NCBI GenBank assembly: GCA_041169145.1 | Contig: JBEEJO010000003.1 | Location: forward strand, 1-39,671 | Length of the DNA: 39,671 bases | Source: Candidatus Parcubacteria bacterium | GTDB lineage: Bacteria; Patescibacteriota; Minisyncoccia; UBA6257; 2-01-FULL-56-20 | Direction: 5' to 3' | Part shown: positions 5-37,984 of the stretch, piece by piece | Numbering within the stretch: position 1 is the first letter of the stretch | Layout of the letters: every line of letters begins with the position of its first letter | Position numbers and translations under genes: made by a program | The notes under the pieces: generated by a model | The model's input: only the letters and a program-made list of their open reading frames with translations | Told to the model about the DNA's origin: nothing | Database searches by the model: none

Positions 5-5326
<5,322 letters not shown>

Positions 5327-8776: not shown

Positions 8777-8969
8777 TTATGAAATTCTTTTAGCTTGTAA
8801 TCGACCTCGTATAATAAGAAGCAAAGCCCAGCTCATTAGTTTGAGTTTGTGGCATAAGCTGTCGTAGGGTTTCTTGCGAACGTTATCACGCATGCAATTT
8901 ATGCCTATTAGCTCAAAATATCAAGCGCTAATTTTGCCACCTCTTTTCTGATGTGAGTGGGGGACTCGA

Positions 8970-9074
8970 ACGTCGCCACGCTATTGCGTGGCTCTCTCAA
9001 AACCCTCGGTTTTGAGTCCGTTTCGCTCATTCCTCCACGGGGAACCGGTCGCGGTTCCCCGACCCCCTCCACTG
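8970..9074 (-). repeat. Three-hairpin structured element, copy A
   Basis: Minus strand GGGGTCGGGGAACCG-CGAC-CGGTTCCCCGTGGAGGA...CTCAAAACC-GAG-GGTTTTGAG...GCCACGC-AATA-GCGTGGC-GACGT; same architecture as 37812-37910. Confidence 0.75.
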
Positions 9075-9094
9075 TTCGAATCCCTCTCCTGCGC

Positions 9095-9136
9095 AAAAAG
9101 ATACGCTCCATCCCAAGGATGAAGCGTATCTTTTTT
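9095..9136 (-). terminator. Terminator downstream of tRNA-Leu
   Basis: 13-bp perfect arms AAAAAGATACGCT / AGCGTATCTTTTT. Confidence 0.7.
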
Positions 9137-9139
9137 GTG

Positions 9140-9223
9140 TGCCCAGGGAGGGACTCGAACCCTCAAGGCCGTGAGGCCACACGATTTTGAGTCGTGCACG
9201 TATACCAGTTCCGTCACCTAGGC
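9140..9223 (-). tRNA. tRNA-Leu(CAA)
   Basis: GCCTAGG/CTGGGC acceptor stem, anticodon arm CACGA-CTCAAAA-TCGTG, long variable arm, GGTTCGAGTCC T-arm; CCA not encoded. Confidence 0.95.
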
Positions 9224-17711: not shown

Positions 17712-17783
17712 GCGCCCTTAGCTCAGTGGTAGAGCGTCACATTGACATTGTGAAGGCCGTAGGTCCGATCCCTACAGGGCGCA
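17712..17783 (+). tRNA. tRNA-Val(GAC)
   Basis: GCGCCCT/AGGGCGC acceptor stem, TAGCTCAGTGGTAGAGC D-arm, TCACA-TTGACAT-TGTGA anticodon arm, T-loop TCCGATC; no CCA. Confidence 0.9.
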
Positions 17784-17858
17784 CAAAGGTGAGGGATCGA
17801 GCGCCGTGGTCGCCGGTACAAGATGGAATGGGCGCGAAGAAATTGAGGATGAAGAGTG

Positions 17859-17894
17859 GGGCACGTAGTTCAGTGGTAGAACGCGTTCCTGATA
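17859..17894 (+). pseudogene. Exact copy of the 5' half of tRNA-Ile
   Basis: 36 nt identical to 17947-17982, ending one base after the GAT anticodon. Confidence 0.9.
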
Positions 17895-17946
17895 TCACGC
17901 GGTCGTGATAGAAACGGTTCGCTCGGTTACAATAAAAATATGTTTT

Positions 17947-18021
17947 GGGCACGTAGTTCAGTGGTAGAACGCGTTCCTGATAAGAACGAGGCCGAAGGTT
18001 CGATTCCTTCCGTGCCCACCA
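17947..18021 (+). tRNA. tRNA-Ile(GAT)
   Basis: GGGCACG/CGTGCCC acceptor stem, CGTTC-CTGATAA-GAACG anticodon arm, GGTTCGATTCC T-arm, encoded CCA. Confidence 0.96.
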
Positions 18022-36576: not shown

Positions 36577-37803
36577 ATGGCAAAAACGAAATCAGCAAAA
36601 CCGAGGCGCGAGCGGCCGCAATCGTCCCTTTCGCCGCTTGTCATTAAGGTCGTCGGCATCGGTGGCGGCGGCGGGAACGCCGTTGCGCGCATCAGCAAAG
36701 AATTCGTCCGTGGCGTTGAGTTCATCGCCATTAATACGGACCACCAAGACCTTGATTACTGCGAGGTTCGTCGGAAAGTCTACATCGGCAAGAATTTGAC
36801 GCATGGCCTTGGTACCGGCATGAATCCCGAGCTTGGGCGCCAGGCTGCGGAGGAAAATCGTTCGGAGATCGCGGAGGCATTGAACGGCGCCGATCTCGTA
36901 TTTCTTGCCGCGGGTCTCGGCGGCGGCACCGGTTCGGGCACGACGCCCATCGTTGCGGAAGTGGCAAAACAGATGGGAGCGCTCACGCTCGCATTCGTCA
37001 CGAAGCCTTTTACGTTCGAGGGAAGTCAGCGACAGCGCATTGCGGAGGACGCGCTCGTAAAACTTAAAGACAAGGTGGATGCATTGATCGTTGTTCCGAA
37101 CGACCGCATTTTCACTATCATCAGCAAAGAGACGCCTATTCTCAAGGCATTCGAGGCTATAGACGATGTGCTGCGGAACGCCCTTATGGGCCTTGTAGAG
37201 CTCATCGTGACGCCGGGCATCGTGAACGTCGATTTCGCGGACGTGCGCGCCGTGGTGCAGGACGCCGGTTCGGCCATCGTCGGTATCGGCGTCGCGTCGG
37301 GCCAGGACCGTGCGGTCCAGGCCGTGAATCAGGCATTGAACTCTCCGCTCTTGGAAGTGAATCCGGAGGGCGCGACCGGAGTTCTTCTCGGTATTTCCGG
37401 CGGGCGCGATATGCGCATGCAGGAGATCAGTGAAGCGGCGAAGATCGTCGCGCAGACCATCGACCCGTCTGCTCGCATCATTTTTGGTGCATATCACGAC
37501 CGGAAGATGAAACCGAACCAGTTGAAGATAACGCTCATCGCCACAGGCTTCGGAAATACGGGCTCTTCGGCGTCGCTCTTCGGCGAAGGCAAGGGATTCT
37601 TCGGCGGGCGCAGTCCGGTGTTTCCGGCCGAGGAAATGAAAGCGCGCGAAGAAGGGAAGGGCAAACAACCGGAGGAGCTCCTGTTCGTGAAAAAAGAGAA
37701 ACCCGTTGATTCGGCAGAAAAAGAAGAGAAGGGGAAGGAGAACAAAAAGACCGACGCGGACGCCTGGGACATACCTACCTTTCTGCGGAGAAAGAAGAAG
37801 TAG
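36577..37803 (+). CDS. ftsZ: Cell division protein FtsZ
   Basis: GGGGGNA, GGGTGSG signature, NVDFAD T7 loop, C-terminal DIPTFLR peptide. Confidence 0.98.
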   Translation: MAKTKSAKPRRERPQSSLSPLVIKVVGIGGGGGNAVARISKEFVRGVEFIAINTDHQDLDYCEVRRKVYIGKNLTHGLGTGMNPELGRQAAEENRSEIAEALNGADLVFLAAGLGGGTGSGTTPIVAEVAKQMGALTLAFVTKPFTFEGSQRQRIAEDALVKLKDKVDALIVVPNDRIFTIISKETPILKAFEAIDDVLRNALMGLVELIVTPGIVNVDFADVRAVVQDAGSAIVGIGVASGQDRAVQAVNQALNSPLLEVNPEGATGVLLGISGGRDMRMQEISEAAKIVAQTIDPSARIIFGAYHDRKMKPNQLKITLIATGFGNTGSSASLFGEGKGFFGGRSPVFPAEEMKAREEGKGKQPEELLFVKKEKPVDSAEKEEKGKENKKTDADAWDIPTFLRRKKK

Positions 37804-37811
37804 ATAGGTCA

Positions 37812-37910
37812 CAGCGGGAAAGGGGTCGGGGAAACGGGAGTTTCCCCGTGGCGGAGCACACGAACCGATGGGTTCGTGGGAGCGGCTTGCTGTATGGCGA
37901 GCCGCGACGT
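37812..37910 (+). repeat. Three-hairpin structured element, copy B
   Basis: GGGGTCGGGGAAAC-GGGA-GTTTCCCCGTGGCGGA..CACGAACC-GATG-GGTTCGTG..GCGGCTTGC-TGTATG-GCGAGCCGC-GACGT. Confidence 0.75.
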
Positions 37911-37948
37911 GGGACATACCTACCTTTCTGCGACGTAAAAAGAAGTAA
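37910..37948 (+). repeat. Direct repeat of the ftsZ 3' end
   Basis: 23-bp identity to 37765-37787, then synonymous codons for RKKK and a stop. Confidence 0.9.
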
Positions 37949-37956
37949 GAGCAGAT

Positions 37957-37984
37957 GATAACGCCCCGCATGCGGGGCGTTATC
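37957..37984. terminator. Probable bidirectional terminator between ftsZ and rmuC
   Basis: Perfect 28-bp palindrome GATAACGCCCCGCATGCGGGGCGTTATC. Confidence 0.7.

Follow-up and report, generated by a model that had tools for sequence, protein, structure and literature searches.

The contig studied here raises the question of why the last codons of a cell-division gene are written twice. The whole stretch of DNA that was analysed (the window, 39,671 bp) belongs to a metagenome-assembled genome of a Candidatus Parcubacteria bacterium (G000), which comprised 0.81 Mb and was 92% complete. ftsZ, the host gene and target (36577..37803, plus strand), was an ORF matching the TIGR00065 equivalog model at 377.7 bits, above the cut-off, with ftsA immediately upstream. 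The C-terminal tail of FtsZ binds FtsA. The peptide WDIPTFLRRKKK followed by a stop was encoded at the ftsZ end (37765-37803) and again at 37910-37948. The starts of the two tails were 145 bases apart, their initial 23 bases were identical, and a within-genome BLASTN search paired them with E = 5e-8. Five base differences were found in four codons, all of them silent, including the TAG/TAA stop; translation and alignment thus confirmed the sequence-only reading, in which both tails gave the same peptide.

As related strains are present in the sample, an assembly or strain chimera was considered. One contig of 347 bases from run X2 ran from the in-gene tail across the spacer into the second copy, with a single difference, and contigs from run X1 tiled the insert region; the two runs represent one sample, from which the window may itself derive. 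No chimera was indicated by these contigs. The layout also recurred in three other lineages, namely two further genera and one metagenome contig, and the probability of an artefact can be considered negligible.

The inserted unit and its empty site

Empty sites in relatives, which had been proposed as a comparison, were found in four congeners (G001–G004), where ftsZ carried one tail. In G001, whose FtsZ was 93% identical to that of the window, the ftsZ end, TAA stop, terminator, and rmuC aligned without a break with the window from about 37908–37910 onward. Because G001 was collinear with the downstream copy, the stranded tail (37910..37948, plus strand) is inferred to be the displaced native end, and the insert corresponds to 37765-37909. 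On this alignment, the insertion junction is placed at the start of the Trp codon. A terminator-like palindrome (37957..37984) lay between ftsZ and the convergent rmuC in the window, and the orthologous hairpin stood directly 3' of ftsZ in G001 and G003. Removal of 37765-37909 in silico gave the same FtsZ, as had been claimed for excision. As a separate observation, the ftsZ end of G001 (L040/L002) encoded the tail DIPTVLR, with Val in place of a usually invariant Phe.

The inserted unit (145 bp, 37765..37909, plus strand), missing from G001, consisted of a replacement gene end, an antisense arm, and a core, and it held no ORF in the ORF list. The in-gene tail (37765..37803, plus strand) was likely supplied by the element, as judged from the differences involved in pairing, and contained an inner hairpin at 37779-37794. 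The arm (37800..37814, plus strand) was complementary to 37764-37778 at 12 of 15 bases, overlapped the TAG stop of ftsZ, and ended 12 bases short of hairpin H1. It was a weak arm, with a score of 9 compared with about 6–7 in shuffled arms, and the ftsZ arm of G018 was partly decayed. The conserved core (37815..37909, plus strand), recognised from its fold and its 12 genomic copies, comprised a G-rich leader, H1 (37827-37848), H2 (37859-37878), H3 (37882-37905), and a junction. The 106 bases between the tails folded strongly (z = −7.0), and the whole unit circularised in silico gave a closed multi-hairpin fold. A promoter scan found no promoter. The 106-base spacer, which the sequence-only reading left undescribed, is the informative part of the locus, and a neutral scar is ruled out.

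One tail was present in 26 of 28 readable ftsZ loci, with L006 and L023 excluded from this count because their tails were unreadable. A tail plus core at ftsZ was identified in three of 125 family genomes, representing three of 48 genera, and in one metagenome sequence present twice (L086 and L087). A core-independent search for doubled ftsZ tails 134–194 bases apart retrieved two of 401 genomes of the order, both already known. In a genome collection, the ftsZ tail with the core gave 10 matches, of which eight were due to chance and two were the DNA of L053 and L055. The ftsZ gene of G131 kept the in-gene tail and an arm remnant and had lost the core and the stranded tail. At this locus (L270, about 1767–1850), the arm remnant and first core bases were followed by an unrelated palindrome.

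A dispersed core family at gene ends

The core occurred in 12 copies in the window genome, 11 at tRNA ends and one at ftsZ. Each of the 11 terminated in a duplicate of the tRNA 3' end, and most had the order of tRNA, hairpin, antisense tail copy, core, and direct tail copy. The second member in the window (8966..9138, minus strand) lay behind tRNA-Leu(CAA) (9139-9223) and comprised a hairpin, arm, core, and stranded tRNA-like tail. A covariance model retrieved 436 matches in 91 of the 125 family genomes, and the core was found in nine of 150 genomes sampled phylum-wide. Of the 436 family matches, 150 were listed and about 110 loci were fetched, best scores first. Among the 121 cores in these best-scoring loci, 85 were within 200 bases of a called tRNA, five were further away, and 31 had no tRNA call. 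Compensatory pair changes were observed across 110–124 cores, with H1 and H2 keeping their pairs through G-C, A-T, and C-G swaps. All 10 matches in Rfam 15 were far below the gathering score (best match of 22.7 bits against a cut-off of 50), and viral contigs searched with two patterns gave no core match.

The targets of the core were tRNA, tmRNA, ftsZ, rpsI, gap, a PHP-domain gene, secA, lepA, typA, a copA-like gene, and a terminator, where the protein targets other than ftsZ were named from their translations without library matches. The core lay at the 3' ends of rpsI, gap, secA, and the PHP-domain gene, and at the 5' ends of lepA, typA, and the copA-like gene, antisense to each. These antisense copies argue against an mRNA role of the core. 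The target sites had no common sequence; each element had its own arm, which varied by target and matched the target rather than other copies. In many tRNA copies, the arm ended with AAC and the junction read GTT, while the GTT junction was missing at protein-gene and terminator targets. L122, located in a bare terminator, had a perfect 17-bp fold-back and is likely a fresh birth of an element. Together with L147, whose repeat matched at 71 of 73 bases, it suggests that an element can copy its tail and arm from the site where it lands. In L303 and L321, the tail, hairpin, arm, and core start were repeated head to tail behind the element, which marks the repeating unit.

The tRNA-Tyr and tRNA-Met sites were filled in the window genome and empty in G001; the tRNA-Ala element was common to both, and thus some copies are old and static. 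The closest match of the window ftsZ core was the tRNA-Ala copy of the same genome (93% identity); its identity to the other ftsZ cores, which grouped together, was 72–76%. The ftsZ site was therefore taken twice, or the core was swapped.

With the spacer placed in this family, one part of the earlier reading stood, namely an insertion bringing a replacement ftsZ end, and the other part, in which a 23-bp core forms the att site of a classical integrase, did not. The identical block was just 13, 7, and 4 bases at three other ftsZ loci. The att site was not supported, as the spacer was a dispersed repeat at many unrelated targets with no integrase attached. A related explanation is that a larger integrase element entered an attB with a 23-bp core in ftsZ and lost its interior, leaving attL and attR. 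The replacement-end architecture resembles that of e14 in icd; e14 and DLP12 (in argU) are integrative elements that rebuild their target gene on insertion, according to the part of the source available (PMC6379469). On that account, the likeness extends to the supply of a new gene end, the duplication of the old end on the far side, and the restoration of the gene by excision. The ftsZ unit differs in being 145 bp long without an integrase in or beside it, in having one core that serves dozens of unrelated targets instead of one att sequence per family, and in carrying in each core copy an antisense arm to its own target. A scar was further opposed by the completeness of the spacer as a family member, by identical blocks ranging from 4 to 23 bases across loci, and by the lack of an ftsZ-tail match in viral contigs searched with two patterns. 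No integrase linkage was found, and the search for islands at ftsZ covered the 1.5-kb flanks of 30 loci. We consider the scar highly improbable.

The arms were compared in 113 elements, after 17 of 130 fetched cores were dropped for short flanks or unmatched motifs. A direct repeat of 10–73 bases was found in 97 of these elements from the best-scoring loci, and the arm matched the in-gene copy of the repeat better than the stranded copy in 85 cases, equally in five, and worse in seven; since the stranded copy decays, an arm that is a mere birth scar would lead to the same bias. Among the 91 elements in which the arm was clear, 58 had it ending 11–13 bases ahead of H1. Mismatches in the arm helices were 39 G-T and 28 A-C, showing little strand bias.

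The core loops and stems were also compared. In 130 cores, GC-GNA-GC loops accounted for 63 of 103 GC-NNN-GC motifs on the top strand, with two on the bottom strand, compared with a genome background of 7%. Such mini-hairpins were described as far more stable in DNA than in RNA in the accessible portion of one study (PMC13037366). The loops may have been inherited rather than independently selected. UUCG was not among the 40 commonest core loops. G-T wobble pairs made up 0.5–1.3% in the core and 2.7% in the tRNA stems of the window genome, and this modest shortage is a weak test between RNA and DNA. A circularly permuted core, in which the motifs are the usual ones but their order is changed, was identified at 11 sites in eight of 401 genomes (none in the control), most with the usual flanking layout; the fold thus matters more than the strand order. 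The permuted cores (L250, 594–686, and L258–L268) were mostly 3' of tRNA genes. L259 and L265 were laid out otherwise, one before a tRNA and one against an antisense tRNA.

Several tRNA loci showed features of their own. The tRNA-Leu(CAA) of the window (9139-9223, minus strand) differed throughout from that of G001 at the same upstream flank (L295), and its stranded tail was closer to the G001 type than to the present gene. A tRNA-Val and tRNA-Ile pair was located at 17712-18021 of the window. At L031 (contig C4 of the window genome, 8435–15760), about 7 kb of cargo lay between tRNA-Ser(GCT) and its arm, core, and stranded tail, and a different tRNA-like scar just before the arm suggests a later island at the same tRNA. 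At L032 (contig C50 of the window genome, 3680–4120), a tRNA-Asn element had no arm, and about 270 AT-rich bases separated the tRNA from a shortened core. L078, L114, L118, and L301 carried a short mini-hairpin of the GC-GAA-GC type within the T-loop of the stranded tRNA tail.

Silent recoding and fate of the stranded tail

In all four ftsZ elements, the in-gene tail folded back onto the arm containing the TAG stop. Four of the five silent differences in the window (37789, 37791, 37794, and 37803) formed Watson-Crick pairs in the predicted hairpin. When each in-gene tail was compared with 300 synonymous shuffles, 12 shuffles folded as well for G000, none for G018 and G054, and one for L086, and the corresponding numbers for the stranded copies were 206, 38, 29, and 98. 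Three empty-site ftsZ tails also scored 10 or fewer of 300. L086 had a perfect 16-base inverted arm, placed as in the window, which supplied the last codon and the stop. According to these predicted folds, the recoding of the ftsZ tail is structural.

Codons differed between the two tails in 26 cases over the four ftsZ loci, and 25 of these differences were silent, where random changes would give 24%. Both tails were therefore likely under coding selection, in line with the earlier claim that both had served as the real ftsZ end. Between L055 and L086, three of 12 codons in the stranded tails differed, all silently, and two of 93 core bases differed, while their ftsZ genes differed at 77 silent and 29 replacement codons among 294. 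The pattern is compatible both with an element that homed repeatedly into empty alleles and with a spare that is maintained. The spare end claimed in the sequence-only reading was not upheld by related reads, in which the stop was lost and residues were changed. One related contig with an apparent element had three silent changes, T>N, and a lost stop in the stranded tail (depth of 6.9); another had three silent changes and K>N (depth of 2, which may be an error). This decay favours homing followed by decay.

If the stranded tail were a spare maintained by the host through programmed excision or RNA splicing, with the core benefiting the host, the all-silent differences and 98% identical cores of L055 and L086 would be explained, as would the restoration of the same protein on removal of the unit. 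Stranded tRNA tails, however, were frequently damaged as well, G131 lost its core and stranded tail, the element was missing from most relatives, and the antisense copies at 5' ends cannot be spliced from mRNA. Such a host device is, in our assessment, very unlikely.

Proposed route of movement and relation to known systems

The family unit at 37765-37909 is very probably a mobile, end-replacing element, and we searched for an enzyme that could move it. The survey covered Y1, tyrosine recombinase, large serine recombinase, IS110, and reverse transcriptase (RT) genes in the 125 genomes. Y1 genes were found in 22 genomes, including three of the 16 richest in cores, serine recombinase genes in 80, IS110 genes in six, and RT genes in 73, of which 58 had cores (Fisher p = 0.066, with related genomes not being independent). 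Tyrosine recombinase genes were found in 115 genomes, some of which were rich in cores and had no further mobile enzyme; a search with the general family PF00589 retrieved mostly a single copy per genome and found no linkage to the core. The window genome had one serine and one tyrosine recombinase and no match to Y1, IS110, or RT. A core was near none of 30 Y1 loci, none of 30 RT loci, none of seven IS110 loci, one of 30 tyrosine recombinase loci (at a syntenic tRNA-Leu), and two of 30 serine recombinase loci. None of the surveyed families thus showed linkage to the core or significant co-occurrence with it, the lowest p being that of RT. At L244 (about 676–800, minus strand), a large serine recombinase frame crossed a truncated core and ended on its far side, as though one of the two elements had inserted into the other.

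No circle junction, unit-skipping joint, or empty allele was detected in three contig sets. As contigs lose rare variants, the lack of a circle or skipping joint among them does not amount to absence. The sole joint leading backward in the contigs was the ftsZ-tail duplication itself.

Our preferred reading, to which we give somewhat less than an even chance, is a non-autonomous element that moves as folded single-stranded DNA and uses its arm as a base-pairing guide. The unit would first leave one strand as a circle, its replacement end paired with the arm and its core folded into a junction. An enzyme supplied in trans would recognise the core, and pairing of the arm with the corresponding gene end of an allele that lacks the element would set the cut 11–13 bases from H1. 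With one strand-transfer step, the unit would enter where the tail begins; the gene would be completed by the tail that the unit brings, leaving the native tail stranded, and replication would fix the second strand. On rare occasions, local copying and fold-back of the target would create new targets, of which those in conserved gene ends alone would reach other strains and species. For the strand transfer, HUH (Y1)-type chemistry is the best fit, although no linked gene was found.

The single-stranded, arm-guided route is tentative. It was favoured by the empty sites, the patchy distribution among genera, the separate arm for each target, the fixed spacing of arm and core, and the resemblance of stranded tails to orthologous tails. 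The antisense 5' copies, GNA loops, head-to-tail repetition in L303 and L321, fold-back of L122, and near-identical L055 and L086 cores despite silent ftsZ divergence also argued for it. Against it stood the lack of a linked enzyme and of a circle or skipping joint in contigs, the weak arm in the window, the little strand bias in arm mismatches, and the modest shortage of wobble pairs.

PATE are relatives of the IS200/IS605 peel-and-paste elements. REP elements also belong among these relatives (PMC6006769, in the part available), and the accessible text on IS608 describes a folded single-stranded element with a target chosen by base pairing and precise excision (PMC5934647). The folded single strand, target choice by base pairing, and precise excision that we infer for the core family resemble this group. 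IS608, as described in that text, differs in having a 4-base guide and no duplication, whereas the core family has an arm of 10–20 bases and duplicates the gene end. IS200/IS605 elements insert beside a target of 4–5 bases without duplication, whereas the core elements had their longer direct repeats in 97 of 113 cases. Unlike IS200/IS605, REP, and PATE elements, the cores had no linked Y1/TnpA (none of 30 loci), although action in trans from a transient source is possible. A single-stranded circular intermediate is a further trait of that group, and for the core family the contigs showed no circle joint.

A folded single strand might instead be recombined, like integron cassettes or Xer-exploiting elements, by a host tyrosine recombinase, the single Xer-type enzyme of the lineage; this family was present in 115 of 125 genomes. 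The boxes of attC contain the inverse core and core motifs AAC ... GTT, and the AAC arm end and GTT junction at tRNAs resemble them. The core elements share with attC cassettes, as far as the accessible part of one source describes them (PMC3458562), an end that pairs with its own start, head-to-tail insertion at one junction, and a likely single-stranded DNA fold. They differ in apparently having no intI/attI platform, in having no cargo gene, and in a usual core formed as a multi-hairpin junction rather than the attC rod. The boxes were missing at ftsZ and the other protein genes as well as at the terminator, these targets shared no sequence, and a core was near just one of 30 recombinase loci. 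A cassette-like route is accordingly regarded as quite unlikely.

A retro-element was also considered, in which core RNA is copied by a host RT into a nicked gene end and the arm is the product of snap-back or template jumping. The abundance of RT genes, the appearance of L122 and L147 as copies of the local target, and the occurrence of a permuted core agree with it, as a tertiary fold such as that of a ribozyme can show circular permutation. The 30 RT loci, however, had no core, RT was not found in G000 at 92% completeness, the tails usually differed as orthologues do rather than as fresh local copies, and the loops were of the DNA-type GNA with no UUCG among the 40 commonest. We consider this route unlikely.

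A wider reading, plausible though less likely than not, is that the element is a natural, protein-free, self-retargeting DNA whose core acquires the guide and gene end from whatever site it enters and homes by base pairing to that conserved end across species. The enzyme for single-strand transfer would then possibly be encoded by the host, and the ftsZ codons and stop would have been rewritten into the guide hairpin.

The accessible part of the account of IS110 bridge RNA (PMC11208160) describes a similar structured non-coding part, in which the target-matching sequence changes with the target. The IS110 recombinase was found in six of 125 genomes and at none of seven loci with a core, and the core family differs in matching one flank alone and in including a full replacement gene end. 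MITEs differ as well, as the core family has no family-wide terminal inverted repeats with a short target duplication and its inverted arm is target-specific. The core family thus departs from the defining features of e14-type elements, IS200/IS605 elements, attC cassettes, IS110 elements, and MITEs, and e14-type end replacement is how we read its mode of working. No description of the core family or of ftsZ as an attachment site was found in the full-text literature available, which leaves subscription papers uncovered. New here are the polarity, read from the empty congener; the hairpin that overlaps the stop at four ftsZ loci; the decaying stranded tail; the circular permutation of the core; and the enzyme survey with its negative outcome.

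Should the arm act as a guide, the family would be a programmable insertion system found in nature, about 145 bases long and able to enter essential genes while leaving them intact. Genomes usually viewed as stripped down would then harbour a new class of mobile DNA, which would explain the duplicated tRNA and gene ends of this lineage. The permuted core offers a handle on the minimal fold. In the case of ftsZ, which is a clear example, a conserved cell-division peptide would carry a DNA structure in the silent positions of its codons.
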